IMG/VR virus record: IMGVR_UViG_2563366874_000012
Reading direction: 5' to 3' (one strand)
Length of the DNA stretch: 50,800 nt
Source of the DNA: a virus
Lineage: Duplodnaviria; Heunggongvirae; Uroviricota; Caudoviricetes
Part shown: positions 2,795 through 49,124 of the stretch, piece after piece
How positions within the stretch are numbered: the stretch's first letter is position 1
How the letters are laid out: each line of letters begins with the position of its first letter
The notes under the pieces: generated by a model
The model's database searches: none
Told to the model about the DNA's origin: nothing
The model's input: only the letters and a program-made list of their open reading frames with translations
Program-made: the position numbers and the translations under genes

Positions 2795-5387
2795 TTGCAT
2801 ATTCCTTAGCCCAGCGGGGCAGTGATAATGTCTTAATAGCTGGCCATTCATCGGTATTCAGGCAGTCAGACAGGGTTCGCAGATTGCGGTGATATTCCTG
2901 TTGACCTGCCAGTTTTGCTTCTTCGCCCATCATGAAAATTTCAACCGGATAACGTCCGCATTCAATAGTTGTGCTGGCAACCAGAAAAACGAAAGTTGGC
3001 TGCACTCCAAACAGTGCTTCATAACCGTCACTGTAGAATGCATCCTGAACGTGATAGCGGTAGTCGTAATAAGCGGTTTTGAATCGTTGAATATCCGCCG
3101 TAGTTTTCACGTCCATGATCCAGTGAAATTCAGGGATAATTTTGTCCGGACGGCACCGACACAAAATTCCTGTTTCAGGATCTTCCCAGTAAATTGATGA
3201 TTCAGCGTGTCCGGCGCTTTCAACAAGCCATTGCCCCAGCGGCAAAGCCATAACGCTTTGATACATGAGTTCAATTTTCCGGCCTTCTTCCGCAGTGATA
3301 ACCGTTTTTCCTGTGCTTGCGCATTCCATCAGAAACGCTTTCTCTTCTTCTTTTCCGGCGTTTGTACGGCGGTTAAATTCAGGTGCTACGATAAAGCGGT
3401 TACTGAATTCTTCCGGTTCAAGTACCCGGCAGTGGAAAGCAGTTCCTAAATCGAGCGTTTTTGTCTTTGTGGTGTCCACGGGGGCATTTTTACGCCACAA
3501 ATATAGTGCCGGAGTATCAGCAATGTCATCGAGCTGAGACTTACTGATACCGGGACCCGCGTGGTAATTCTCATTCGAAATTCCGTAATAAATACCTGGC
3601 TCTATGTCTTCTACGATTACGGGATCTGCGACTTCGCCAGTTTCATCACTGCAATCGTGATGCGGATCGCTGCCAGCATTCTCATTGTGCGGATGTTCAG
3701 CGCCTTCCATTTCCTCCGGATCATTTTCCTTAGCTTCAACCTGACTCTCTTCATCGAATGTTTCCTGGTATGTTGCGTCGCCCATCACCGCACCACAGTC
3801 AGGGCAGTTATCCCCGCCAGTCTGGCCGCAGGCATTGCAGGCTATTTCCGGTTCCTGTTGCACTACTGGCTCAGGTTGATTCATATCTGGGCTGGTTTTT
3901 TCCGTTTCTGGCTGGTTCTGGTACACACAATCGCGAGTCTGGATCCCCTTTACCCATTTCGGATCGTTCGGGTCGCTAATTCCGTCAACAAATTCACCAC
4001 GTGATGCAGCAAGCAATTTATCGGCATCGACAGGATTTTTTGATGGAATGTTTTTCCGGGCTTCATGGAGTTCTGCCCGCAGTTCCTGATATTTCGCATC
4101 AACAGAATTTACCTGTGACTGAGCATCCAGCGGCTGCGTGTCCTGATGATGTTCAGTTGCGTCCGGTTCCATTGTTTCAGCCTCTCCCTGTTCAACTGCC
4201 GTTGTTCCAGATGGTTGCGGTTTTTCTTCATCATCCTGTTTTCCTTCTTCTGTTACTCGCTGCGGCATCGGGGCAGAGGAGCGACTGCAGGCAATATCCA
4301 CGATTTCCGGATCAGGGTTGGCATGATCGGTTTCAGTCAGTACTTTGTTCAGATATTCAGTGACGTGCGCGGGGATGACCTCGATCCCAATTGGTGCTTC
4401 TTTTACGGACGCAACCACGATGGCGCGGGAATAATCCAGCCCGCCAGGCATGGTGATGAATTTGTCGCGGAAAACAGAAAAGGGCGGTTTATTTTCAGCG
4501 ATAATTTCCTCAATGCGTTTAGCGTGTGCCGGATGAAGGTTATAGATGTCCAGATCCATTGAACGGGCCAGTACGCCAGTGGCTACGTCGCGCGCCAGTG
4601 ACGTCAGATCGTGTACGAAACCTTCGCCGCGATCGGTGAGGTTTCCGCCGCCAGCATTAGCACCGGAAGCCGTGCGAGTGATGTGTGAAACACGATTACC
4701 CTTCATCCACTCTTTTGTCAGCAGTCCTCGATCGGTGTAGTCAGCGTTCAGGTATGCTTCGAAAAAAGCAGTTATCAGTCCCAGGTTTGAATTACCAGGA
4801 TTAGGGAAAACTTTGTCAGTGTCACGAACCAGTTTGTGGAGTTCGCGAATTTCCAGCGGGTCGAGCAGGCTGGTTTTGTGGGAAACAGCCAGGGCAGTAA
4901 CAGCCGGTAGTTCTTCAGCCCGAGCAATGTGTAATGCCTGGAGTCCGTCGCGTGAAACGTGCGTTACCGGTTTTTCGCTGCCGTGTTGAGCAAGCCAACG
5001 AATGGGCAGTTCCTGGCCAGAAATTGGGAGTAGCATATTCTCCTCAATCTCAGTCATGTCTTCGCCGTTGACGTTGGTATTGCCTTGATAATGAGCGTTG
5101 TCTGGTGCTGCTCCCGGTTTTAGTTCCCATGTCATGGAGTCTTTGCTGAGTTGATAGCGTTCACTCCAGGTAAAATCGATCTCACCTTCAGCGGGCAGGT
5201 CATTAACGACAGGAAAATTCGTGGCAACAGCTTTAAAATAGCTGCTCAGTTTTTTACCTGACTTAACGATCAGGTAGTCCAGAGTGGCACAGGTCGATTC
5301 AAAATCGTTGCTTGCCCACAGGACGACGTCAGGTTCACCGGATGATTTTTTCGCTTTCCGTAACAGGAAGAGTGGTTTTGTGCTCAT
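2787..5387 (-). CDS. recE: RecE exodeoxyribonuclease VIII
   Basis: 866-aa ORF, same length as Rac RecE; acidic central region and C-terminal nuclease domain; recE-recT operon arrangement. Confidence 0.9.
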
Positions 5388-6230: not shown

Positions 6231-6671
6231 AATTATCTCCATTTTTACAAATGAATTTTGTTGATGCGGTGCCTGGTGCCTCCAGGTGACTGCAACCAGT
6301 TAACAATTACAGTCGGCTTTCCCACCCAAACCAATAAGGACTAACATGACTTTTAACTGTGCCACGTGCGCTTAGCCGCATTCACCGCATCACAAAATTC
6401 ACTTTAAAAAGGGCGGACATCAGCCGAACTTCAAGAAAAAAACTGATGCCGCCAGGACTACACACAGCAATGTCGTTATTTACAACCGGAGGCGCACTCC
6501 CACCATTTAAATTTAACAGACAAGACCGACTCTTTATGGATATCGGAAATGCGCCTTCGTGTTGTGCCCGGTTTTATTTCACCACCTCCGGGCTTCGGTG
6601 GTCTCGGCTATACCCCTACAGCGAGAGCTTGTGTTAACATTTCAATACCCTTACAGTTGAGAGTTATTGAT

Positions 6672-7160
6672 ATGTTGGATGTATTTACTCCATTGTTGAA
6701 ACTTTTTGCTAACGAGCCACTCGAAAGACTTATGTATACGATTATCATTTTTGGTCTCACTCTCTGGCTGATACCGAAAGAGTTTGCTGTCGCATTCAAT
6801 GCTTATACTGAAATACCCTGGCTCTTTCAGATTATCGTTTTTGCCTTTTCTTTCGTGGTCGCTATTTCCTTCTCAAGATTGCGAGCACATATTCAAAAGC
6901 ATTATTCATTGCTACCAGAGCAACGAGTATTGCTTCGTTTATCTGAGAAAGAAATCGCTGTATTTAAAGATTTCCTTAAAACAGGAAATCTTATTATCAC
7001 TTCTCCTTGCCGTAACCCGGTTATGAAAAAATTAGAACGGAAGGGCATCATTCAACATCAGAGTGATAGCGCAAACTGTTCTTATTATCTCGTCACCGAA
7101 AAATACTCCCACTTTATGAAGTTATTCTGGAACAGCAGGAGCAGGCGTTTTAATCGTTAG
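6672..7160 (+). CDS. sieB: Superinfection exclusion protein SieB
   Basis: 162-aa membrane protein MLDVFTPLLKLFANEPLERLMYTIIIFGLTLWLIPKEF...; located between kil and the immunity region. Confidence 0.8.
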   Translation: MLDVFTPLLKLFANEPLERLMYTIIIFGLTLWLIPKEFAVAFNAYTEIPWLFQIIVFAFSFVVAISFSRLRAHIQKHYSLLPEQRVLLRLSEKEIAVFKDFLKTGNLIITSPCRNPVMKKLERKGIIQHQSDSANCSYYLVTEKYSHFMKLFWNSRSRRFNR

Positions 7161-7312
7161 CTTACTGTGTGCTTCTCCAACCATCGTCGTGCGCCAGCTT
7201 CGGTTTTAAACGTTTTGCTTTTGGTATACGTCATGGCAGTGAACGTTCCATCCTGGTTGGGGAACACGCCGCACACCAGGGATTCGTTATTGCCGAGGTC
7301 GATTTTTTGCAT
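7158..7312 (-). pseudogene. ydaF: ydaF-like small ORF split across two frames by a 1-nt length change in a homopolymer run
   Basis: From ATG 7312(-): MQKIDLGNNESLVCGVF, then the frame ends after 9 more codons; the -1 frame continues NQDGTFTAMTYTKSKTFKTEAGARRWLEKHTVS*. Break maps to GGG at 7260-7262 (+ strand). Confidence 0.45.
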
Positions 7313-7322
7313 TTTTCGCACC

Positions 7323-7457
7323 TCACATCTTGTTGTTGCGGATAGAGGCTTCTGCCTGCCAGAGATCCCAGTCGTTGCTGCGTAGAGCCTGTACAGCCTG
7401 GCTGTAAGTGATATCGCAACAATCCATCAAATACTGAACTACTTCGTAATGCACCAT
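7323..7457 (-). CDS. ydaG: Small Rac protein YdaG-like
   Basis: 44-aa ORF MVHYEVVQYLMDCCDITYSQAVQALRSNDWDLWQAEASIRNNKM. Confidence 0.6.
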   Translation of the reverse strand: MVHYEVVQYLMDCCDITYSQAVQALRSNDWDLWQAEASIRNNKM

Positions 7458-7624
7458 CTTATCTCTCCCCTTAACGCCGGGTGGCGGAACTGAAACCTGC
7501 TGCACTGCAAAATCTGAACCCTGCCGTCATGTTCATACGCCTCGGGCTGGCTACTTAACCCCTGACCACTGCCTGGTAACTCGAAGTATTGCCCTGCGTT
7601 CTGTGGGGCGGGGTGGGTTGGTAG

Positions 7625-7690
7625 GTATATGATGTACTTTGTGTTCATTGATGTAAAGTACTTTAAGTACATTTTGTGTGTAAAAAAATG
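7625..7690. promoter_or_regulatory. Operator-like repeat cluster downstream of racR (OL-type region)
   Basis: Repeated GTACTTT / AAGTACA motifs (gatgtactttgtg ... aaagtactttaagtacatttt) resembling the ATGTACT motifs on the other side of racR. Confidence 0.35.
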
Positions 7691-7747
7691 AGATGGGATA
7701 AAGTGAAGCACAAACCCGGAGGGGGGAGCTACCGGATTTATGCTGGT

Positions 7748-8167
7748 TTAAGAGGCTTTTTGTTTTTTCTTTCGTGCTAACTCTTCGTAAATTGCATTGT
7801 ACTTCTGTTTTTTCTCCTCAAGAGTTTTTAAAAGTTCATCTGTCTCACTGTCAGGGAGCTCGTCCAGAAGGTCAATGATGATTTTTTGTCTTGGATTTAA
7901 CTCCTGATAGAAACGTACCTGTCCACTTTCTTCTGTATCCTCTCCCAAAAGATAGGTTGGTGTTGTTCCAATGAGTGTTGCTAATTCCCTTAATTTCTCT
8001 CGGCGAGGAATTGTTTCGCCATTAAACCATTTGCTAACCGCTTTTGGTGTTAATTTCATTCGACGGGCAATTTCTGCCTGCCTTCCATGTTGTTCATAAC
8101 CAGCGTTTTCACAGGCTAGCGCAAGCCTACTGGCGAACTCTTTACGCGCTTTATCTTCATGAACCAT
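7748..8167 (-). CDS. racR: Prophage repressor RacR (CI-like, HTH)
   Basis: 139-aa ORF with N-terminal HTH (ASRLALACENAGYEQHGRQAEIARRMKLTPKAVSKW); divergent from cro-like ydaS. Confidence 0.8.
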   Translation of the reverse strand: MVHEDKARKEFASRLALACENAGYEQHGRQAEIARRMKLTPKAVSKWFNGETIPRREKLRELATLIGTTPTYLLGEDTEESGQVRFYQELNPRQKIIIDLLDELPDSETDELLKTLEEKKQKYNAIYEELARKKKQKAS

Positions 8168-8246
8168 AAGTTCAATGATATTCGCTCTTGAATGTACTGT
8201 CAGTTCTGTTATAGCATGTACTCAAAGTTCACATTGTGAGGGTGAT
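8168..8246. promoter_or_regulatory. Divergent racR/ydaS promoter-operator region
   Basis: 79-bp spacer containing two ATGTACT copies (8192-8198, 8216-8222) and the palindrome TCACATTGTGA (8229-8239) just upstream of the ydaS SD. Confidence 0.5.
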
Positions 8247-8501
8247 ATGAACCAGAAAACACTTGAAGATGTAATCAAAACTGTTCGCGTTTCTGTTGTG
8301 GCCGACGTTTGTGGTGTCAGCCAAAGAGCAATCTACAAATGGATGGATAACGGAAAATTGCCTCGCACAGAATATACCGGCGAAACAAATTACGCTGAAA
8401 AAATCGCTCATGCATCAAACGGATTATTTTCTGCCGATGTAATTTTAACTATTGGCAGAAATAAAACTACTACGAAAAAGCTGATGGGAGTTGATTCATG
8501 A
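8247..8501 (+). CDS. ydaS: Cro-like DNA-binding protein YdaS
   Basis: 84-aa ORF MNQKTLEDVIKTVRVSVVADVCGVSQRAIYKWMDNGKLPR (HTH); GAGGG SD; divergent from repressor. Confidence 0.75.
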   Translation: MNQKTLEDVIKTVRVSVVADVCGVSQRAIYKWMDNGKLPRTEYTGETNYAEKIAHASNGLFSADVILTIGRNKTTTKKLMGVDS

Positions 8502-8920
8502 AAATCAAGCATGAGCACATCGAGTCAGTGTTGTTAGCCCTGGCAGCCGAAAAAGGGCAGGCATGGGTAGCCAATGCCATTACTGAAGAATATCTGCGCC
8601 AGGGGGGCGGCGAATTGCCCCTGGTACCAGGCAAGGACTGGAATAATCAGCAGAACATCTATCACCGTTGGTTAAAAGGTGAAACGGAAGCGCAAAGGGA
8701 AAAAATTCAGAAACTGATCCCTGCAATTCTGGCAATCCTTCCGCGCGAGCTGCGTCACCGACTCTGCATCTTCGATACCCTGGAACGCCGTGCATTACTG
8801 GCGGCGCAGGAAGCGTTAAGTACGGCAATTGATGCGCATGATGATGCAGTCCAGGCCGTTTACCGGAAAGCGCATTTCAGCGGCGGCGGGTCTTCCGACG
8901 ATTCTGTCATTGTTCATTAA
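8498..8920 (+). CDS. ydaT: YdaT-like protein (CII-position, toxic-when-derepressed partner of YdaS)
   Basis: 140-aa ORF MKIKHEHIESVLLALAAEKGQAWVANAITEEYLRQ...; start overlaps ydaS stop (ATGA). Confidence 0.7.
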   Translation: MKIKHEHIESVLLALAAEKGQAWVANAITEEYLRQGGGELPLVPGKDWNNQQNIYHRWLKGETEAQREKIQKLIPAILAILPRELRHRLCIFDTLERRALLAAQEALSTAIDAHDDAVQAVYRKAHFSGGGSSDDSVIVH

Positions 8921-12511: not shown

Positions 12512-12524
12512 TAATACTAAATAA

Positions 12525-17733: not shown

Positions 17734-18054
17734 CGTTGTTAGGCTCTGGAAACATCCTCGACTTCTTGTTAGCAAGCCTGAGAGCCTGAATCTTACACTT
17801 AGCACCATCCGAACTCTCGGAGGTGAGGCTTATGAAAATGCACAATGCCCCTCATTCCTGGCCTGACTTACTGGAACTCTTACAAAGTTGGTGGCGTGGA
17901 GATACGCCGCTGGGTGCAGTGGTTATGTCAATTATTATGGCTGGTTTGCGCATTGCCTATTTTGGCGGTGGCGGCGGCTGGAAACGAAAAACGCTTGAGA
18001 TTCTGCTTTGTGGTGCTCTGACGCTGACCTTTGCATCCGCGCTTGGATTTGCCC

Positions 18055-18960
18055 CTATATTTCCAGACATCTGTTATCACTTAACCCATTACAAGCCCGC
18101 TGCCGCAGATATTCCCGTGGCGAGCGATAACCCAGCGCACTATGCGGATGCCATTCGTTATAATGCTCGAACGCCTCTGCAAGGTTCTTTGCTGCCGTTA
18201 ACCCGTCTGGTTTGGGCATGATACTGATGTAGTCACGCTTTATCGTTTTCACGAAGCTCTCTGCTATTCCGTTACTCTCCGGACTCCGCACCGCCGTGTT
18301 CTTCGGTTCAAGTCCCAACATCCGGGCGAACTGGCGTGTTTCATTAGCCCGGTAGCATGAACCATTATCCGTCAGCCACTCCACTGGAGACGACGGAAGA
18401 TCGTTGCCGAAGCGGCGTTCCACCGCTCCCAGCATGACGTCCTGTACTGTTTCACTGTTGAAGCCGCCGGTAGTGACCGCCCAGTGCAGTGCCTCACGAT
18501 CACAGCAGTCCAGCGCGAACGTGACACGCAGTCTCTCTCCGTTATCACAGCAGAACTCGAACCCGTCAGAGCACCATCGCTGATTGCTTTCTTTCACGGC
18601 CACTCTGCCTGTATGTGCCCGTTTCGATGGCGGTACAGCAGGTTTTCGCTCAAGCAACAGCGCATTCTGGCGCATGATCCGGTAAACACGTTTGGCATTG
18701 ATCGCAGGCATACCATCAAGTTCTGCCTGTCTGCGAAGCAGCGCCCATACCCGACGATAACCATACGTTGGCAGCTCTCCGATAACATGGTGTATACGGA
18801 GAAGCACATCCGTATCATCAGTGTGACGACTGCGGCGGCCATCCATCCAGTCATCGGTTCGTCTGAGAATGACGTGCAACTGCGCACGCGACACCCGGAG
18901 ACAACGGCTGACTAAGCTTACTCCCCATCCCCGGGCAATAAGGGCGCGTGCGCTATCCAC
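18055..18960 (-). CDS. insD: IS2 transposase OrfB (InsD)
   Basis: 301-aa [49 protein letters not shown]... with DDE integrase-type core. Confidence 0.9.
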
Positions 18961-19283
18961 TTTTTTGCCCGTCCATATTCAACGGCTTCTTTGAGGAGTT
19001 CATTTTCCATCGTTTTCTTGCCGAGCAGGCGCTGGAGTTCTTTAATCTGCTTCATGGCGGCAGCAAGTTCAGAGGCAGGAACAACCTGTTCTCCGGCGGC
19101 GACAGCAGTAAGACTTCCTTCCTGGTATTGCTTACGCCAGAGAAATAACTGGCTGGCTGCTACACCATGTTGCCGGGCAACGAGGGAGACCGTCATCCCC
19201 GGTTCAAAGCTCTGCTGAACAATTGCGATCTTTTCCTGTGTGGTACGCCGTCTGCGTTTCTCCGGCCCTAAGACATCAATCAT
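18918..19283 (-). CDS. insC: IS2 OrfA (InsC) HTH protein
   Basis: 121-aa [59 protein letters not shown]... Confidence 0.9.
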
Positions 19284-19512
19284 CTGTTCTCCAATGACTA
19301 GTCTAAAAACTAGTATTAAGACTATCACTTATTTAAGTGATATTGGTTGTCTGGAGATTCAGGGGGCCAGTCTAGCGCTTGAGTATGTCGGATGGCCTAA
19401 ATCACTTTCTGTTGCCATTGGTGGTGGGGTGGGGCTGATTGGTGTTGATGCTATTCGTGGTGCGGCAATGAGGGTCATCGGTAACAAGTTCGGTGCCCAT
19501 AAGGAGTAATTA

Positions 19513-40430: not shown

Positions 40431-43400
40431 ATGGGTAAAGGCAGCAGTAAGGGGCATACCCCGCGCGAAGCGAAGGACAACCTGAAGTCCACGCAGCTGC
40501 TGAGTGTGATCGATGCCATCAGCGAAGGGCCGGTTGAAGGTCCGGTGGATGGATTAAAAAGCGTGCTGCTGAACAGTACGCCGGTGCTGGACAGTGAGGG
40601 GAATACCAATATATCCGGCGTCACGGTGGTGTTCCGGGCCGGTGAGCAGGAGCAGACACCGCCGGAGGGATTTGAATCCTCCGGCTCCGAGACGGTGCTG
40701 GGTACGGAAGTGAAGTACGACACGCCGATTACCCGGACCATCACGTCGGCAAACATCGACCGTCTGCGCTTTACCTTCGGTGTGCAGGCACTGGTGGAAA
40801 CCACCTCAAAGGGGGACCGGAATCCGTCGGAAGTCCGCCTGCTGGTTCAGATACAGCGTAATGGTGGCTGGGTGACGGAAAAAGACATCACCATTAAAGG
40901 CAAAACCACCTCACAGTATCTAACATCGGTGGTGGTGGGTGACCTGCCGCCGCGCCCGTTCAATATCCGGATGCGCAGGATGACGCCGGACAGCACCACA
41001 GACCAGCTGCAGAACAAAACGCTCTGGTCGTCATACACCGAAATCATCGATGTGAAACAGTGCTACCCGAACACGGCACTGGTCGGCGTACAGGTGGATT
41101 CGGAGCAGTTCGGCAGCCAGCAGGTGAGCCGTAATTATCATCTGCGCGGGCGTATTCTGCAGGTGCCGTCGAACTATAACCCGCAGACTCGGCAATACAG
41201 CGGTATCTGGGACGGAACGTTTAAGCCAGCATACAGCAATAACATGGCCTGGTGTCTGTGGGATATGCTGACCCATCCACGCTACGGCATGGGGAAACGT
41301 CTTGGTGCGGCGGATGTGGACAAATGGGCGCTGTATGTCATCGGCCAGTACTGCGACCAGTCAGTGCCGGACGGCTTTGGCGGCACGGAGCCGCGCATCA
41401 CCTGTAATGCGTACCTGACCACACAGCGCAAGGCGTGGGATGTGCTCAGTGATTTCTGCTCGGCGATGCGCTGTATGCCGGTATGGAACGGGCAGACGCT
41501 GACGTTCGTGCAGGACCGACCGTCGGATAAGGTGTGGACCTATAACCGCAGTAATGTGGTGATGCCGGATGATGGCGCGCCGTTCCGCTACAGCTTCAGC
41601 GCCCTGAAGGACCGCCATAATGCCGTTGAGGTGAACTGGATTGACCCGGATAACGGCTGGGAGACGGCGACAGAGCTTGTTGAAGATACGCAGGCCATTG
41701 CCCGTTACGGTCGTAACGTCACGAAGATGGATGCCTTTGGCTGTACCAGCCGGGGGCAGGCACACCGCGCCGGGCTGTGGCTGATTAAAACGGAGCTGCT
41801 GGAAACGCAGACCGTGGACTTCAGCGTGGGCGCAGAAGGGCTTCGCCATGTACCGGGCGATGTCATTGAAATCTGTGATGATGACTATGCGGGTATCAGC
41901 ATCGGCGGGCGCGTGCTGGCGGTGAACAGCCAGACGCGGACGCTGACGCTCGACCGTGAAATCACGCTGCCATCCTCCGGCATCACGCTGATAAGCCTGG
42001 TTGACGGACAGGGGAATCCGGTCAGCGTGGAGGTTCAGTCCGTCACCGACGGCGTGAAGGTAAAAGTGAGCCGTGTTCCTGGCGGTGTTGCTGAATACAG
42101 CGTATGGGGGCTGAAGCTGCCGACGCTGCGCCAGCGACTGTTCCGCTGCGTGAGTATCCGTGAGAACGACGACGGCACGTATGCCATCACCGCCGTGCAG
42201 CATGTGCCGGAGAAAGAGGCCATCGTGGATAACGGGGCGCACTTTGACGGCGACCAGAGCGGCACGGTGAATGGTGTCACGCCGCCAGCGGTGCAGCACC
42301 TGACCGCCGAAGTCACCGCAGACAGCGGGGAATATCAGGTGCTGGCGCGATGGGACACGCCGAAGGTGGTGAAGGGCGTGAGCTTTATGCTTCGTCTGAC
42401 CGTGGCAGCGGATGACGGCAGTGAGCGGCTGGTCAGCACGGCCAGGACGACGGAAACCACATACCGCTTCACGCAACTGGCGCTGGGAAACTACAGGCTG
42501 ACAGTCCGGGCGGCAAATGCCTGGGGGCAGCAGGGCGATCCGGCATCGGTATCGTTCCGGATTGCCGCACCGGCAGCGCCGTCGCGGATTGAGCTGACGC
42601 CGGGCTATTTTCAGATAACCGCCACGCCGTATCTTGCCGTTTATGATCCGACGGTACAGTTTGAGTTCTGGTTCTCGGAAAAGCGGATTGCGGATATCAG
42701 GCAGGTTGAAACCACAGCCCGCTATCTTGGCACGGCGCTGTACTGGATAGCTGCCAGTATCAATATCAAGCCGGGCCATGATTATTATTTTTACATCCGC
42801 AGTGTGAACACCGTTGGCAAATCGGCATTCGTGGAGGCTGTTGGCCAGCCGAGTGATGATGCATCCGGCTATCTGGATTTTTTCAAAGGAGAGATAGGGA
42901 AAACCCATCTGGCTCAGGAGTTGTGGACGCAGATTGATAACGGTCAGCTTGCGCCTGACCTGGCTGAAATCAGGACGTCCATTACGGATGTCAGTAATGA
43001 AATCACGCAGACCGTCAATAAGAAACTGGAAGACCAGAGTGCAGCGATCTAGCAGATACAGAAGGTTCAGGTTGATACAAATAATAACCTGAACAGCATG
43101 TAGGCTGTGAAGCTGCAGCAGATGCAGGACGGACGCCTTTATATCGCGGGTATTGGTGCCGGTATTGAGAACACCCCTGACGGCATGCAGAGTCAGGTGC
43201 TGCTGGCGGCAGACAGGATTGCGATGGTTAATCCTGCGAATGGCAACACAAAGCCGATGTTTGTTGGTCAGGGCGATCAGATATTCATGAACGAAGTGTT
43301 CCTGAAATATCTGACGGCTCCCACCATTACCAGCGGCGGTAATCCTCCGGCATTTTCCCTGACACCGGACGGGCGGCTGACGGCGAAAAATGCCGATATC

Positions 43401-43910
43401 AGCGGTAGCGTGAATGCGAACTCCGGGACGCTCAACAACGTCACGATTAACGAGAACTGTCGGGTTCTGGGAAAACTGTCCGCGAACCAGATTGAAGGCG
43501 ATCTCGTTAAAACAGTGGGCAAAGCTTTCCCCCGGGACTCCCGTGCACCGGAGCGGTGGCCATCAGGGACCATTACCGTCAGGATTTATGACGATCAGCC
43601 GTTTGACCGGCAGATTGTTATTCCAGCGGTGGCATTCAGCGGTGCCAGACATGAACGGGAGAATAGCGATACTTATTCGTCATGCCGCCTGATAGTGAAG
43701 AAAAACGGGGCTGAAATTTATAACCGAACGGCGCTGGATAATACGCTGATTTACAGTGGCGTTATTGATATGCCTGCCGGTCACGGTCACATGACGCTGG
43801 AGTTTTCGGTGTCAGCATGGCTGGTAAATGACTGGTATCCCACAGCAAGTATCAGCGATTTGCTGGTTGTGGTGATGAAGAAAGCCACCGCAGGCATCAG
43901 TATCAGCTGA
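40431..43910 (+). pseudogene. Host specificity / central tail fibre protein J interrupted by two in-frame TAG codons
   Basis: One reading frame: 873 codons, TAG (43050-43052), 16 sense codons (QIQKVQVDTNNNLNSM), TAG (43101-43103), then 269 further codons [23 protein letters not shown]...; the track's downstream ORF starts at GTG 43107 with no SD. Confidence 0.8.
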
Positions 43911-43929
43911 ATTTTATAACCCCAATACG

Positions 43930-43953
43930 GGCGTCAGAAATGACGCCTTTTTT
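43930..43953 (+). terminator. Intrinsic terminator after J
   Basis: GGCGTCA-gaaa-TGACGCC followed by TTTTTT. Confidence 0.55.
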
Positions 43954-43977
43954 ATTGCAGAAAAGCGAGAGGTAATT

Positions 43978-44577
43978 ATGCGTAAATTATGTGCTGTTAT
44001 TCTGTCCGCAGTAGTCTGGCTGGTTGCCGCTGGTACGCCAGCGAGCGCAGCAGAGCATCAGTCCACACTAAGCGCCGGGTATCTTCAGACCCATACTGAT
44101 ATGCCCGGCAACGATGACCTGAAGGGCATTAACGTGAAATACCGTTATGAATTTACGGACACGCTGGGGCTGGTGACGTCATTCAGTTATGCCAATGCCA
44201 AAGATGAGCAAAAAACGCATTACAGCGATACCCGCTGGCATGAAGATTCAGTGCGTAACCGCTGGTTCAGCATGATGGCGGGGCCGTCTGTACGCGTGAA
44301 TGAATGGTTCAGTGCTTATGCGATGGCAGGTGTGGCTTACAGCCGTGTTTCAACGTTCTCCGGGGATTATCTCCGCGTAACTGACAGCAAGGGGAAAACG
44401 CACGATGTGCTGACCGGAAGTGATGACGGTCGCCACAGCAACACGTCTCTGGCGTGGGGGGCTGGCGTGCAGTTTAACCCGACCGAATCCGTGGCCATTG
44501 ATATTGCTTATGAAGGCTCCGGCAGTGGTGACTGGCGCACTGACGGTTTCATCGTGGGTGTCGGTTATAAATTCTGA
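43978..44577 (+). CDS. lom: Lom-like outer membrane protein (Ail/Lom family), intact
   Basis: 199-aa ORF with signal peptide MRKLCAVILSAVVWLVAAGTPASA and C-terminal beta-barrel signature ...GFIVGVGYKF; flanked by terminators on both sides. Confidence 0.8.
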   Translation: MRKLCAVILSAVVWLVAAGTPASAAEHQSTLSAGYLQTHTDMPGNDDLKGINVKYRYEFTDTLGLVTSFSYANAKDEQKTHYSDTRWHEDSVRNRWFSMMAGPSVRVNEWFSAYAMAGVAYSRVSTFSGDYLRVTDSKGKTHDVLTGSDDGRHSNTSLAWGAGVQFNPTESVAIDIAYEGSGSGDWRTDGFIVGVGYKF

Positions 44578-44604
44578 TTAGCCAGGTAACACAGTGTTAT
44601 GACA

Positions 44605-44630
44605 GCCCGCCGGTTCAGGCGGGCTTTTTT
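44605..44630 (+). terminator. Intrinsic terminator after lom
   Basis: GCCCGCC-ggttca-GGCGGGC followed by TTTTTT. Confidence 0.55.
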
Positions 44631-44999
44631 GTGGAGTGGATATGGCAGCAGTAAAAATCTCAGGTGTGCTGAAAGATGGTGCGGGAAAACCAATACAGAA
44701 CTGCACTATTCAACTGAAGGCAAAGCGTAACAGCACCACGGTACTGGTGAACACGGTGGCCTCTGAAAATCCGGATGAAGCCGGGCGTTACAGCATGGAT
44801 GTTGAGCATGGCCAGTACAGCGTCATCCTGCTGGTTGAAGGTTTTCCGCCTTCACATGCCGGGACCATTACCGTCTATGAAGGCTCCAGACCAGGTACGC
44901 TGAATGATTTTCTCGGTGCCATGACGGAAGATGATGTCATGCCGGAGGCATTGCGTCGTTTTGAGGCAATGGTGGAAGAAGTGGCACGCAACGCCGAAG

Positions 45000-45650
45000 C
45001 CGCCTCTCAGAGCGCAGCGGCGGCAAAGAAATCCGAAACTGCAGCGGCATCATCGAAGAACGCGGCGAAAACCTCAGAAACGAATGCAGCTAATAGTGCA
45101 CAGGCGGCAGCGACCTCAAAGACTGCATCGGCAAACTCCGCGACAGCAGCCAAAAAATCAGAAACCAACGCGAAAAACAGTGAGACAGCCGCAAAGACGA
45201 GCGAAACCAACGCAAAGTCCAGCCAGACGGCAGCGAAAACCAGCGAAACGAATGCTAAAGCCAGTGAAACTGCGGCAAAAAACAGCCAGGCTGCAGCAGC
45301 TGAAAGCGAGAGCGCGGCAGCCGGTTCTGCGACTTCAGCAGCTGGATCAGCAACTGCTGCGGCTAACAGCCAGAAAGCTGCGAAGACGAGTGAAACTAAC
45401 GCAAAGTCCAGCCAGACGGCAGCGAAGACCAGCGAAACGAATGCCAAAGCCAGTGAAACTGCGGCGAAAAGCAGTCAGGATGCAGCGGCCCAAAGCGAGA
45501 GTGCCGCAGCCAGTTCTGCAAGCGCGGCGGCTGCTTCTGCCACTGCATCAGCTAACAGTCAAAAAGCAGCAAAAACCAGTGAAACCAACGCAAAGGTGAG
45601 CGAAACAGCGGCTGCGAACTCAGCGAAAGCATCGGCAGCAAGCCAGACGG
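45000..45650 (+). repeat. In-frame tandem repeat region within the tail fibre gene
   Basis: Reiterated AAKTSETNAK(S/A)S(E/Q)TAAK units; about 120-bp near-identical DNA segments around 45213-45330 and 45393-45510. Confidence 0.6.
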
Positions 45651-46763
45651 CAGCTAAAGCAAGCGAAGATGCAGCCAGAGAGTACGCAAGCCAGGCTGCG
45701 GAGCCGTATAAATATGTCTTACAGCCGCTGCCTGATGTGTGGATACCATTTAACGATTCGCTGGATATGATTACGGGCTTTTCGCCATCATATAAAAAAA
45801 TTGTTATTGGTGACGATGAAATAACGATGCCTGGCGACAAGATTGTTAAGTTTAAACGTGCATCGAAAGCAACCTATATTAACAAATCTGGTGTGCTGAC
45901 AGAGGCTGCCATTGACGAGCCACGATTTGAACGTGATGGCCTGCTTATTGAGGGGCAAAGAACAAACTACATGCTCAATTCGGAAAGCCCTGCCAGTTGG
46001 GGGCGATCGTCAAATATGGATGTGCCCGAAACAGGGACGGATAATTTTGGTTTTACCTATGGAAAGTTTGTCTGCAACGATTCTCTGATTGGGCAAACCT
46101 CAGCCATTAATATGGCATCAATTGCTGCAACAAAGTCAGTTGATGTCTCAGGCGATAATAAACACGTGACAACCTCATGTCGTTTTAAAACAGAACTGCA
46201 GGTAAGGTTGCGTATCCGGTTTGATAAATATGACGGTAGCGCAACAACTTTTCTTGGTGATGCGTATATTGATACACAAACGCTTGAAATTAATATGACA
46301 GGCGGTGCTGCCTCAAGGATTACAGCGAGAGTCAGAAAGGACGAAGCTACCGGATGGATTTTTGCAGAGGCAACAATTCAGGCAATTGATGGGGAGTTAA
46401 AAATAGGCTCTCAGATACAGTATTCTCCTAAGCAGAGCGGGGCAACCGTATCTGGTGACTATATTTATCTGGCCACCCCACAAGTAGAAGATGGGCCTTG
46501 TGTATCATCTTTTATTATATCAGGAGCGACGGCGGCGACCCGCGCAAGCGATATAGTTACAGTTCCAATTAAGAATAATCTTTATAATCTTCCTTTTACG
46601 GTTCTTTGTGAGGTACATAAGAACTGGTATAAAACGCCAAATGCAGCGCCACGTGTTTTTGATACCGGCGGTCATCAAACCGGAGCGGCTATTATTCTTG
46701 GCTTCGGTCGTTCAACAGATTACGACGGATTTCCTTATTGCGATATTGGGTAATGACTCCAAC

Positions 46764-47267
46764 TTATTGATAGTGTTTTATGTTCAGATAATGCCCGATG
46801 ACTTTGTCATGCAGCTCCACCGATTTTGAGAACGACAGCGACTTCCGTCCCAGCCGTGCCAGGTGCTGCCTCAGATTCAGGTTATGCCGCTCAATTCGCT
46901 GCGTATATCGCTTGCTGATTACGTGCAGCTTTCCCTTCAGGCGTGATTCATACAGCGGCCAGCCATCCGTCATCCATATCACCACGTCAAAGGGTGACAG
47001 CAGGCTCATAAGACGCCCCAGCGTCGCCATAGTGCGTTCACCGAATACGTGCGCAACAACCGTCTTCCGGAGCCTGTCATACGCGTAAAACAGCCAGCGC
47101 TGGCGCGATTTAGCCCCGACATAGCCCCACTGTTCGCCCATTTCCGCGCAGACGATGACGTCACTGCCCGGCTGTATGCGCGAGGTTACCGACTGCGGCC
47201 TGAGTTTTTTAAGTGACGTAAAATCGTGTTGAGGCCAACGCCCATAATGCGGGCAGTTGCCCGGCAT
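46764..47267 (-). CDS. insB: IS1 InsB transposase ORF
   Basis: 167-aa ORF ...[43 protein letters not shown]... Confidence 0.9.
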
Positions 47268-47461
47268 CCAACGCCATTCATGGCCATATCAATGATTTTC
47301 TGGTGCGTACCGGGTTGAGAAGCGGTGTAAGTGAACTGCAGTTGCCATGTTTTACGGCAGTGAGAGCAGAGATAGCGCTGATGTCCGGCGGTGCTTTTGC
47401 CGTTACGCACCACTCCGTCAGTAGCTGAACAGGAGGGACAGCTGATAGAAACAGAAGCCAC
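47186..47461 (-). CDS. insA: IS1 InsA
   Basis: 91-aa [94 protein letters not shown]. Confidence 0.9.
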
Positions 47462-47792
47462 TGGAGCACCTCAAAAAAACCATCATACGCTAAATCAGTA
47501 AGTTGGCAGCATCACCCGATATTGGAGGAGCTAACAGACGGGTAAACGAAAACGCATCGCTTGAAAAAATGGTTATGGGGATGCGTGTAAAGTCAGAGCA
47601 GTCTACGTGCTCAGTAAGTAACGGGCATATATCCAGCGAAACAAAAACCACATGGTCCTGTATTCAGAACACCGCAATTATCCGTATTGGAGGCCAGACT
47701 ACAGCCGGGTTACGTCATTTATTTGGTCATGTCAGGAATTTCAGAATATGGCACAAGGCATTGACTGATGCTCAGGTGGGGGAGTCAATCTA

Positions 47793-48074
47793 ATGAAAGA
47801 TTTAACACTCAAATTTGCCGACAGGGCCGACTTTTCGGCCTTTATGGAGAGTATTGGCTATTATGATGACGAGTCGATGCAGGATGATATTCTTATTGAC
47901 GTGATAGGTAACGTGTACAAAGAAACCGGAGAACTGACTGAAGATGGCGAACCGGTATGTGTTAAGGAAGACGGATATTTTGTAAACGTGCGCATCATTA
48001 ATGATTCGCAAATATCGTCATTATTCGATGAATACGTGGTTGCTGTTGAGCATCAACTTCGTGGCTGGATGTGA
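47793..48074 (+). CDS. Hypothetical acidic small protein coupled to the tail fibre genes
   Basis: 93-aa ORF MKDLTLKFADRADFSAFMESIGYYDDESMQDDILIDVIGNVYKETGELTEDGEP...; ATG overlaps stf stop (TAATG). Confidence 0.45.
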   Translation: MKDLTLKFADRADFSAFMESIGYYDDESMQDDILIDVIGNVYKETGELTEDGEPVCVKEDGYFVNVRIINDSQISSLFDEYVVAVEHQLRGWM

Positions 48075-48083
48075 GGAAGAAAA

Positions 48084-49124
48084 ATGGCTACATCGACAGT
48101 AATTCCTGATGACATCAAAACGCTAAAATCCGACGTTAGCAAATTAAAAAACGATCAAGGAAGCTACGCAACAAAATTATATGTAGACAGCAAAGATGAA
48201 ATCGTTGGTGACTGGTCTGCTTCATGGTATCAGCAGGTATTGCCAACTAGCGGAGCTATATTTGGGAGAAAACTCCGCTCAACTCACAGGACGGCAGGTG
48301 TTGAGGATGCGTATTGCGAACTATACCTCAAAAAATGGATAGACAGTCCAGGTAACGCAATGGCGCGCCTTAACCTGAACGATAACGGGACAAACATTTG
48401 CTGGGACTTTACCAACCTTTATGGCGGTACGATGATTTTTCCCGGTGACAGCGGATACCTCAAAATGGGTAACTGCCTTATGTCATACAGCAAGCGTGGA
48501 AGTAACGCGCTTATTAAATTTGATTACACCGACACATTACAGATCAAATATGCCAATCATGGGTCAACCATGACATTAAACACACAGGGAACCGCTTATG
48601 CTGGTGTTACTGCTCAATTGTGGGGCAACTCCAGCCGTCCTGTTGTTTATGAAGTCGGTGTTGATGGTGGCGCTTATATGTTCTATGCGCAGAAAAATAC
48701 CGATAACACCTATATGTTAAGCGTTAATGGTGCATGTCATGCCACCGCATTTAACCAGCATTCCGACCGGGATCTGAAAGACAACATTCAGGTGATCGAT
48801 AATGCAACCGACCGCATCCGTAAAATGAACGGCTATACATACACGCTTAAAGAAAACGGTATGCCCTATGCTGGTGTCATTGCACAGGAAGCTCTGGAAG
48901 CAATCCCAGAAGCTGTAGGTTCCGCAATGAAATATCAGGACGGTGCAAGCGGATCGGAAGGTGAAGAAGGTGAACGTTATTACACAGTAGATTATTCTGG
49001 TGTTACTGGCTTGCTTGTTCAGGTAGCCAGAGAGTCAGACGACAGAATAACAGCACTGGAAGAAGAAAATGCAGAATTAAAACAAAGATTATCTGCAATT
49101 GAGGCGACGCTTGCGTCTAAATAA
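48084..49124 (+). CDS. Tail fibre / tailspike-type protein with C-terminal intramolecular chaperone domain (peptidase S74-like)
   Basis: 346-aa ORF; C-terminus ...SDRDLKDNIQVIDNATDRIRKMNGYTYTLKENGMPYAGVIAQEALEAIPEAV...YTVDYSGVTGLLVQVARESDDRITALEEENAELKQRL resembles the autoproteolytic chaperone of phage fibres. Confidence 0.6.
   Translation: MATSTVIPDDIKTLKSDVSKLKNDQGSYATKLYVDSKDEIVGDWSASWYQQVLPTSGAIFGRKLRSTHRTAGVEDAYCELYLKKWIDSPGNAMARLNLNDNGTNICWDFTNLYGGTMIFPGDSGYLKMGNCLMSYSKRGSNALIKFDYTDTLQIKYANHGSTMTLNTQGTAYAGVTAQLWGNSSRPVVYEVGVDGGAYMFYAQKNTDNTYMLSVNGACHATAFNQHSDRDLKDNIQVIDNATDRIRKMNGYTYTLKENGMPYAGVIAQEALEAIPEAVGSAMKYQDGASGSEGEEGERYYTVDYSGVTGLLVQVARESDDRITALEEENAELKQRLSAIEATLASK

Follow-up and report, generated by a model that had tools for sequence, protein, structure and literature searches.

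The side tail fibres of phage lambda are accessory adsorption organelles whose loss is tolerated. Laboratory lambda PaPa reportedly carries no side tail fibres through a frameshift in stf (Hendrix and Duda 1992), a case that PMC3945230 also mentions. Elements of the IS1 family are ~768 bp long, end in imperfect inverted repeats of roughly 23 bp, encode insA (zinc ribbon and HTH) and insB' (DDE), which a -1 frameshift on an A6C motif connects, and create direct target-site duplications of 8-9 bp, all of which are found in the element described here. Fibre genes of defective prophages act as recombination reservoirs for lambdoid phages (PMC3945230). The window analysed here, a stretch of DNA of 50,800 nucleotides, very probably records a single genuine IS1 transposition into the Stf-type fibre gene of a full-length Rac-type prophage in E. 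coli KTE21. IS1 is antisense to the gene, has duplicated 8 bp (possibly 9) of the target and supplies a TAA that leaves a 703-aa product. The event was probably recent and selectively neutral, and the prophage, likely no longer able to make infectious particles, has further lesions of independent origin besides the IS1 hit.

Inverted repeats and transposase frames define a complete IS1 of 768 bp at positions 46749-47516, with the transposase on the minus strand and antisense to the fibre gene. The first-pass annotation had located IS1 at these positions in the fibre gene, and the length, both inverted repeats and the Pfam matches of insA and insB' agree with it. A degenerate inverted-repeat scan of the window recovered two sites, with 0 expected in shuffles, and both are exactly the element ends: the IRR end GGTAATGACTCCAACTTATTGAT at 46749-46771 on the plus strand and the IRL end GGTGATGCTGCCAACTTACTGAT (reverse complement) at 47494-47516 on the minus strand. 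Both transposase frames are open and lie on the minus strand. The insA frame (47461-47186, 91 aa) matches PF03811 and PF12759 (Zn_ribbon_InsA, HTH_Tnp_IS1), and the insB' frame (47267-46764, 167 aa) matches PF03400 (DDE_Tnp_IS1) at 2.9e-77, with NCBIfam NF033558 also matching the IS1 transposase. The -1 frameshift motif TTAAAAAAC (A6C) joins insA to insB' at IS1 coordinate 305. Promoter-like hexamers for insA lie at 47509-47482, by the IRL end of the element. The element aligns ungapped with a copy annotated as IS1A at 761/768 identical positions (99.1%; 7 substitutions). A draft, scaffold-level assembly (GCA_000350785.1) is the basis both for placing IS1 here and for its internal sequence.

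Repeat comparison identified a target-site duplication CGATATTG abutting both IS1 ends, with the left copy at 46741-46748 and the right copy at 47517-47524, neither assigned to a strand; only one copy is present at the empty site in L059. The probability that a repeat of 8 bp adjoins both ends by chance is ~1.5e-5. To the left of IS1 the repeat identity ends after 8 bases, and to the right one extra G is ambiguous as a ninth duplicated base because IS1 itself begins with G. Counting IS1 as 768 bp, the target duplication is 8 bp, as had been read in the first-pass annotation, against the more usual 9 bp of IS1, and the ambiguous ninth base makes 9 bp possible. The filled-site junctions join TTGCGATATTG to GGTAATGAC and CATCACC to CGATATTGGAGG. 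The upstream open reading frame ends at 46753, where ...GFPYCDIG is followed by a TAA (46751-46753) from IS1, two codons into the element, and the frame at 47503-47793 downstream of IS1 reads ...DIGGANRRVNENAS.... Removing 776 bp reconstructs an open reading frame of 2376 nt and 791 aa that is ungapped against intact alleles, which bears out the earlier proposal that the two frames match across this interval. The cut falls after residue 703 of 791 and the codons lost through IS1 number 88, close to the initial estimate of roughly the last 90.

The comparison with intact fibres of related prophages, proposed together with the insertion, was run and returned colinear, ungapped 791-aa alleles. 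The reconstructed fibre is ungapped against SW070919, TUM14771 (2 aa differences) and the 791-aa members of the same protein cluster, and intact 791-aa alleles are carried by other E. coli as well as by isolated temperate phages. RefSeq annotates the AR_0006 and TUM14771 fibres as two CDSs each, the N-terminal one labelled 'partial'. We rejected these as additional frameshifted alleles, as translation gives one uninterrupted 791-aa frame and the RefSeq split is therefore an annotation artefact. On sequence comparison, the empty site is ancestral and common. An exact 40-mer across it occurs in 55 IMG/VR contigs, 418 of 5,426 complete E. coli genomes carry it (at least 80% coverage of a 1192-nt query), and the isolated phages PhiR63_1, HannyBb, Tritos and 2G7b match it at 99.7-99.8%. 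IS1 at this fibre position was found in 0 of the 5,426 complete E. coli genomes, and a sequence search found the filled junction absent from IMG/VR and from GTDB species representatives. The 703-aa product (ELC41475.1 / WP_001523193.1) is recorded from just one contig, KB732322.1 in assembly GCA_000350785.1 (E. coli KTE21), which is identical to the window. With the empty site widespread and the IS1 version on one contig, the insertion is therefore private and points to recent transposition. A recent date also follows from the 3' remnant of the gene and 3.1 kb downstream, which show 0 mismatches against TUM14771. FFFEB2, the only match covering 100% of the query, was discarded as a case of the same insertion, since its fibre is intact and its IS1 lies after the entire fibre operon, on the downstream side.

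A short-read assembler could have misplaced a multicopy IS1 into an intact fibre gene. In favour of this, the window derives from a draft scaffold, short reads resolve a 768-bp repeat poorly, and E. coli genomes have IS1 in a median of 11 places each. Misplacement would, however, yield neither a perfect 8-bp duplication nor junctions exactly at both IS1 termini. The flanks are also precisely colinear with the empty site after removal of one repeat copy, and 0 Ns occur within 14 kb around the site, so that an assembly artefact is highly improbable. IS1 copies are also frequent substrates of homologous recombination, and the flanks might have been joined by recombination between two copies, as in an inversion, a deletion or a cointegrate remnant, rather than by simple insertion. 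Such an origin has a vanishingly small probability, as the two flanks are parts of one gene, share orientation and frame, and are spaced by exactly IS1 plus one repeat copy. The flanking 8-bp repeats are identical, whereas a two-copy rearrangement would produce non-matching repeats and non-colinear flanks. We hence retain a single transposition of IS1 into the fibre gene.

Codons 1-703 of the side-tail-fibre gene, its 5' part, occupy 44642-46748 on the plus strand and encode the 703-aa product, with PF08400 (phage_tail_N) matching aa 3-132 at 8.6e-67. The span of 44636-47793 proposed in the first-pass annotation was correct at its end; at its start, 44636 marks the first in-frame GTG, and annotated homologues begin with the ATG at 44642 (MAAVKISG...). 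The orphaned 3' remnant (47525-47793, plus strand), delimited by reading frame and structure model, comprises the rest of codon 703 to codon 791 plus the stop and is 100% identical to TUM14771. According to the model, the final 5 strands of the C-terminal lectin-like domain and its terminal helix are encoded there. The gene order is J, lom (Ail_Lom by Pfam match, 43978-44577) and then the fibre, and both this position and the PF08400 N-terminus are those of a lambda-type Stf. The reconstructed fibre covers phrog_1419 at positions 1-793 of 793. No Tfa-type assembly chaperone gene was found directly downstream of the fibre, where a 93-aa frame without Pfam or NCBIfam match (47793-48074, plus strand; phrog_1361, function unknown) begins with an ATG overlapping the fibre stop codon (TAATG). 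By sequence, the fibre is thus Stf-like at its N-terminus only. A second fibre gene after IS1 (48084-49124, plus strand, 346 aa) is intact in sequence and carries a C-terminal Peptidase_S74 intramolecular chaperone domain. Given the TAATG overlap, coupling of translation from the fibre gene to the 93-aa frame was likely lost. IS1 is classically polar in both orientations, and some polarity on the downstream 346-aa fibre gene might therefore occur, which Q-antiterminated late transcription would lessen.

From its lambda-Stf-type N-terminus, the fibre continues through a shaft rich in Ala into two ConA-like beta-sandwiches in tandem. NCBIfam NF048003 (GTA_spike_fiber) matches aa 435-635 with 50.5 bits, above its curated cutoff of 36, and a profile built from diverse homologues aligns fibre aa 405-644 with the RcGTA head fibre (6TB9 chain) at 1.7e-43. 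PDB 6TB9 matched by sequence but was rejected as a structural template, with only residues 2-10 of the chain resolved (PMC7296036). Over aa ~635/649-790, the same profile matches pentraxin, CBM40, S-layer lectin-like and neurotoxin Hc-N domains, and the profile matches mapped to aa 635-790 include 4qvs (3.4e-8), 3flp (2.3e-5) and 4c1w (1.1e-4). AlphaFold2 produced a model with pLDDT 91 from an alignment of 56 sequences (cluster representatives of a 50% library); a model from 25 close homologues (76-97% identical) reached pLDDT 44 only and was not used. Foldseek matched the terminal domain to C-reactive protein (TM-score by target 0.59, rmsd 3.1-3.5 A, ~156 columns), with further matches to CBM40, neurexin LNS, ADGRG4 PTX domains and many phage 'ConA-like lectin' tail proteins. 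The modelled terminal domain is accordingly a predicted beta-sandwich superposable on pentraxin, CBM40 or LNS domains. Pfam Laminin_G_3 (PF13385) scored below its gathering threshold against the terminal domain (18.9 vs 27.6 bits, E-value 0.0017) and matched only the last 53 residues. Distant homologues match up to the final residues of the module, and the C-terminal 88 aa are therefore a conserved, integral part of it.

In the structural model, the IS1 cut falls in the middle of the terminal pentraxin/CBM40/LamG-like sandwich and takes away ~55-60% of the domain. The remaining part should not fold, and the distal, probably glycan-binding, end of the fibre would thereby be lost. A receptor-binding role of the terminal domain is likely from its modelled fold and from module shuffling. 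The first-pass annotation had described the loss of a likely receptor-binding tip. The C-terminal loss stands, and the notion of a separable tip does not, as the cut bisects the terminal beta-sandwich. The two-sandwich module is common to lambdoid, P2-type, T5-like and Dhillonvirus fibres.

The prophage around the fibre gene is ~50 kb long, keeps all head and tail genes, sits at ttcA and adjoins sitABCD. Window positions 1-22000 are 99.9-100% identical to TUM14771 and MS 69-1 regions annotated as Rac-type, with ttcA integration and intR, xisR, ralR, recT, recE, racC, kilR, sieB, ydaSTUV and trkG present. J (tail tip / host specificity; 40431-43910, plus strand) contains two in-frame TAG codons at 43050-43052 (CAG>TAG) and 43101-43103 (TGG>TAG), which were already known from the first inspection and are point mutations compared to relatives. 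The ambers are 51 nt apart and both are private. The closest haplotype checked for sharing by the lineage (strain 127) has CAG and TGG, and the 201-nt J segment with the ambers had no 100% match in complete genomes. In addition, IS2 interrupts the holin gene of the same prophage. The earlier statement that both host-range determinants are disabled is right about the J ambers and the stf lesion and left out the third fibre gene (346 aa), the sequence of which is intact. By analogy with lambda PaPa, a phage that had lost only stf would still be infectious. What makes the prophage defective is the pair of ambers in J, together with the IS2 in the holin gene.

The accumulation of lesions raises the question of selection. 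The insertion might be adaptive if it disarmed virion or tail production with useful Rac genes kept, or if the truncated fibre acquired a changed function. Three to four independent private lesions in adsorption and lysis genes (two J ambers, IS1 in stf, IS2 in the holin gene) could be taken in this sense. The same fibre gene also carries an independent IS3-family insertion in P31_YH1_02.21, which was checked, and a genome search found three further genomes with the same pattern of interruption. Such hits in other strains would fit a recurrent target of domestication. The observed pattern is, however, the one expected when a repressed prophage decays neutrally. Late genes occupy most of its length and are hence the largest target, and the truncated domain is unlikely to fold according to the model. 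An adaptive insertion is thus very unlikely. We likewise consider it very unlikely that the knock-out cluster is the footprint of selection disarming lysis and adsorption with host-beneficial genes kept, with the fibre gene as a recurrent domestication target. The IS1 transposition into the fibre gene is ordinary prophage decay, an insertional inactivation by a canonical IS and of an already known kind. Nothing specific was found in the literature on IS insertions in Rac or lambdoid side-fibre genes.

For strain KTE21, the Rac-type prophage should be regarded as defective in adsorption (J, stf) and lysis (holin). WP_001523193.1 / ELC41475.1 represents a truncated pseudogene product and no natural fibre variant. 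The significance of the IS1 insertion beyond such record-keeping is little. The analysis also maps the domains of a fibre module widespread among E. coli phages, in which a GTA-head-fibre-like sandwich is followed by a pentraxin/CBM40-like sandwich. This two-sandwich module may be of practical use in host-range engineering.

Compared with IS1A-type gene inactivation in E. coli, nothing essential is different in the KTE21 case. The locus resembles lambda PaPa in the inactivation of a side-tail-fibre gene of the same PF08400 N-terminal family located downstream of J and lom. The lesion in PaPa is a 1-bp frameshift with J intact, whereas the KTE21 prophage has an IS1 insertion and J is knocked out too. 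The KTE21 fibre further differs in ending with a tandem ConA-like lectin pair and in having no Tfa-type chaperone gene after it. Residues 46-280 of the Rhodobacter capsulatus GTA head spike fibre Rcc01080 (6TB9) are homologous to KTE21 fibre aa 405-644. Rcc01080 is, in contrast, a 325-aa head-attached single subunit, and the match ends at residue 280/325, short of the terminal domain cut by IS1. GTA particles bind capsular polysaccharide through their fibre (PMC7296036), and this, together with the fold, suggests by analogy a glycan-binding role for the KTE21 fibre. With Rac of E. coli K-12 (stfR/tfaR), the KTE21 prophage shares its type and its integration site, along with intR, xisR, recET, kilR, sieB, ydaSTUV and trkG at ttcA, with gene names taken from the annotation of TUM14771, a 99.5-100% identical relative. 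Unlike Rac of K-12, the KTE21 copy extends over ~50 kb with all head and tail genes, and the distal module of its fibre is not the one found in stfR of K-12.

The Stf-type side-tail-fibre gene (window 44642-47793, plus strand) is split by an IS1 element at 46749-47516. According to the ORF listing and a reading of 44500-48100, the fibre ORF has its first in-frame GTG at 44636, with the true start probably the ATG at 44642, and ends in ...GFPYCDIG with a stop at 46751-46753. The 768-base insert opens with GGTAATGACTCCAACTTATTGAT and closes with the reverse complement of GGTGATGCTGCCAACTTACTGAT. Beyond the insert, the fibre frame picks up again as DIGGANRRVNENAS... and runs to a stop at 47791-47793. 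The minus strand of the insert encodes InsA (91 aa; PF03811 and PF12759) and InsB' (167 aa; PF03400, 2.9e-77; NF033558), separated by the frameshift motif TTAAAAAAC. All defining IS1 features that were tested are present, and the element, the only IS1 copy in the window, matches a copy annotated as IS1A in another genome at 761 of 768 positions without gaps. Directly outside both ends lies CGATATTG (46741-48 and 47517-24). The target duplication is 8 bp, with 9 bp possible, since identity ends after 8 bases on the left side and one more G on the right side could also be read as the first base of IS1. Removal of 776 bp (IS1 and one repeat copy) restores a 2376-nt ORF of 791 aa, which bears out the first-pass annotation of an IS1 with an 8-bp duplication and of frames rejoining after such a removal.

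The reconstructed gene equals intact alleles in length and aligns with them without gaps. The allele of the comparison strain TUM14771 differs by two amino acids, and all differences from the SW070919 allele fall within the first 660 nt. Gapless alignment at equal length also holds for the 791-aa proteins in its 90% cluster, and the match of the reconstructed fibre to PHROG 1419 spans all 793 positions. In a blastn comparison of the window with the TUM14771 prophage, the flanks overlap by exactly 9 bases, CGATATTGG, at the single-copy site. The source is a draft scaffold judged from the assembly without reads, which leaves some room for an assembler error that misplaced IS1 in the fibre gene. 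A misplaced IS1 would, however, yield neither a target duplication nor exact colinearity, and we regard such an error as very unlikely.

The insertion is private to the E. coli KTE21 isolate, because the empty site is widespread, the filled site is absent from the collections searched and the truncated product occurs on one contig. An exact 40-mer spanning the empty site is found in 55 IMG/VR contigs, and 418 of 5,426 complete E. coli genomes cover 80% or more of an empty-site query of 1192 nt. The isolated temperate phages PhiR63_1, HannyBb, Tritos and 2G7b carry the intact region at 99.7-99.8% identity. A 43-mer spanning the filled left junction has no match in IMG/VR or in GTDB species representatives, and none of the 5,426 complete E. 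coli genomes carries IS1 at this fibre position. The sole apparent full-coverage match in the genome search was rejected as the same insertion, its IS1 lying 3 kb downstream. By exact look-up, the truncated 703-aa product (ELC41475.1 / WP_001523193.1) is encoded only on contig KB732322.1 of KTE21 (GCA_000350785.1), which is identical to the window across the 12,159 bases compared and contains no Ns. The event is likely recent, because the 3' remnant of the gene (47525-47793) and the following 3.1 kb are 100% identical to TUM14771. In RefSeq, the fibre of TUM14771 (44683-47058) and AR_0006 (6494-8869) is divided in two: its N-terminal part is listed as a "partial" pseudogene, and a separate entry is called "phage head spike fiber domain-containing protein". 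The split in TUM14771 is an annotation artefact, because its translated fibre DNA is a single open 791-aa frame; AR_0006 shows the same split by annotation. Such splits raise apparent pseudogene counts.

The fibre carries a PF08400 prophage tail fibre N-terminal domain (aa 3-132, 8.6e-67), followed by a repetitive Ala/Ser/Thr-rich shaft in which a segment of about 231 bp is directly repeated (45176-45406 and 45365-45595, 83% identity). Homologues that share the C-terminal module have 727, 728, 742, 775 and 791 aa, a variation that presumably reflects repeat gain and loss. The module comprises the last ~416 residues and is C-terminal in all its carriers. Its N-terminal partners are lambda-type (PF08400), P2-type (PF12571/PF03406), T5-like lateral and Dhillonvirus fibres. 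Modules in protein hits, including the P2-type PF12571/PF03406 fusions, are 85-93% identical; the module also occurs in the Dhillonvirus fibres of tunus and tinuso and, at about 82% nucleotide identity, in the T5-like lateral tail fibre of VogelGryff. Such shuffling of N-termini is typical of receptor-recognition cassettes, and the double-lectin module is a widely exchanged cassette.

AlphaFold2 on the module gave a useless model from a shallow alignment (pLDDT 44), and one with pLDDT 91 and pTM 0.87 from 56 diverse homologues. Mapped to fibre residues, the PDB sequence matches of a profile built from the 56-homologue alignment show two tandem beta-sandwiches. The first (aa about 405-644) shares homology with Rcc01080, the head spike fibre of RcGTA (E-value 1.7e-43; only residues 2-10 of the RcGTA head fibre chain are resolved in the PDB entry), matches the phage baseplate and tail-fibre proteins 9b45, 9occ and 8env, and scores over the cutoff of NF048003. 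The RcGTA head fibre binds particles to capsular polysaccharide (PMC7296036). The second (aa about 635/649-790) matches the S-layer lectin-like domain 4qvs (3.4e-8), Limulus pentraxin 3flp (2.3e-5), the sialidase CBM40 4c1w (1.1e-4), C-reactive protein and clostridial neurotoxin Hc-N domains. Foldseek is concordant, returning phage baseplate proteins, tandem neurexin LNS domains, C-reactive protein (TM-score by target 0.59), CBM40 and many phage tail proteins labelled ConA-like lectin. At the sequence level, Pfam Laminin_G_3 gave a sub-threshold match only.

The stop codon supplied by IS1 cuts the product to 703 aa. Residue 703 corresponds to profile position 465 and model residue 328. In the model and profile, the cut falls ~55-70 residues into the terminal sandwich and removes its last five strands and the C-terminal helix. 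The lost part is conserved and integral to the domain, because distant homologues align through to the last residues of the module. The earlier description of the lost segment as the receptor-binding tip is thus fair; more exactly, IS1 bisects the terminal lectin-like domain, which might bind a glycan or receptor. The truncated domain would be unable to fold, and distal function would be lost. A conserved 93-aa ORF (47793-48074; phrog_1361, no Pfam or NCBIfam match) may lose translational coupling to the fibre gene, because its start overlaps the fibre stop (TAATG). It is flanked on one side by the lectin-tipped fibre and on the other by a second fibre of 346 aa (48084-49124), which has a Peptidase_S74 intramolecular chaperone domain and is intact in sequence. 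IS1 is classically polar in both orientations. The 346-aa fibre gene, downstream of IS1, may suffer polarity, which late-operon antitermination would reduce. In a simple scan, neither a convincing outward promoter nor a strong intrinsic terminator was seen.

The window holds a full-length Rac-type prophage of about 50 kb. Over positions 1-22000 the window matches TUM14771 and MS 69-1 at 99.9-100% identity; the matched regions are annotated intR, xisR, ralR, recT, recE, racC, kilR, sieB, ydaSTUV and trkG and adjoin ttcA. Head, tail, J and lom genes come next, and the right end adjoins sitABCD in relatives. The site at window ~12517-12520 is empty; in close relatives (TUM14771, MS 69-1 and others) it is occupied by an IS5. 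An IS2 of 1331 bp (18044-19374; minus-strand ORFs of 136 and 301 aa), delimited by comparison with TUM14771 and flanked by GCGCT at 18039-18043 and 19375-19379, sits about 212 nt into a 342-nt lambda-family holin gene and is not present in the nearest relatives. Together with IS1, it makes two IS knock-outs of late functions in this prophage.

The tail tip gene J (40431-43910, plus strand) is interrupted in frame by two TAG codons, at 43050-52 and 43101-03, 51 nt apart. The first-pass call of these ambers held up on translation and against the sense codons CAG and TGG in SW070919, TUM14771 and strain 127, the last otherwise sharing the local J haplotype. A 201-nt segment with the ambers has no 100% match in any complete E. 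coli genome. Given these sense codons and the missing match, both ambers are private point mutations, C>T (CAG>TAG) and G>A (TGG>TAG). They take away the C-terminal 286 codons, which we take, by analogy with lambda, to be the receptor-binding part. Two private nonsense mutations so near each other are slightly odd; the pair is compatible with decay following a first hit. The best J match is SW070919 (98.9%). Window 40898-44358 (J and the start of lom) holds 107 of the 116 differences from TUM14771 in the 19375-46749 alignment, which indicates a recombination tract and a mosaic J allele.

Because of the J ambers, IS2 in the holin gene and IS1 in the fibre gene, the prophage is likely defective in adsorption and lysis, with IS1 as one lesion of several. 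Selection to disarm the prophage as the source of these clustered private knock-outs is unsupported and seems quite unlikely. In P31_YH1_02.21 the same fibre gene is interrupted by an IS3-family element (2851-4079) that lies some 630 nt ahead of the stop codon, and this strain has an IS200C (415-873) between lom and the fibre gene. At the annotation level, the search table of complete E. coli genomes lists an IS3-family transposase under the same match in 3 further genomes. The interruption in P31_YH1_02.21 and the same pattern in these genomes show that IS hits in the fibre gene are commonplace. As an insertional inactivation of a late prophage gene, the IS1 event is a textbook case, and the public record already includes the IS1 transposase and the shortened fibre among its gene calls.

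In lambda the side tail fibres are accessory structures, and PaPa is an stf frameshift mutant (PMC3945230). The IS1 insertion by itself would thus not have been decisive. The fibre gene comes after J and lom, the position of stf in lambda, and shares with lambda Stf this gene position and the N-terminus. In contrast to lambda Stf, no gene for a Tfa-type chaperone follows it, and the distal module is a different one. The gene is Stf-like without being a strict orthologue of lambda Stf. The Stf-Tfa pair of lambda is replaced in the window by the fibre, the 93-aa ORF and the S74 fibre.
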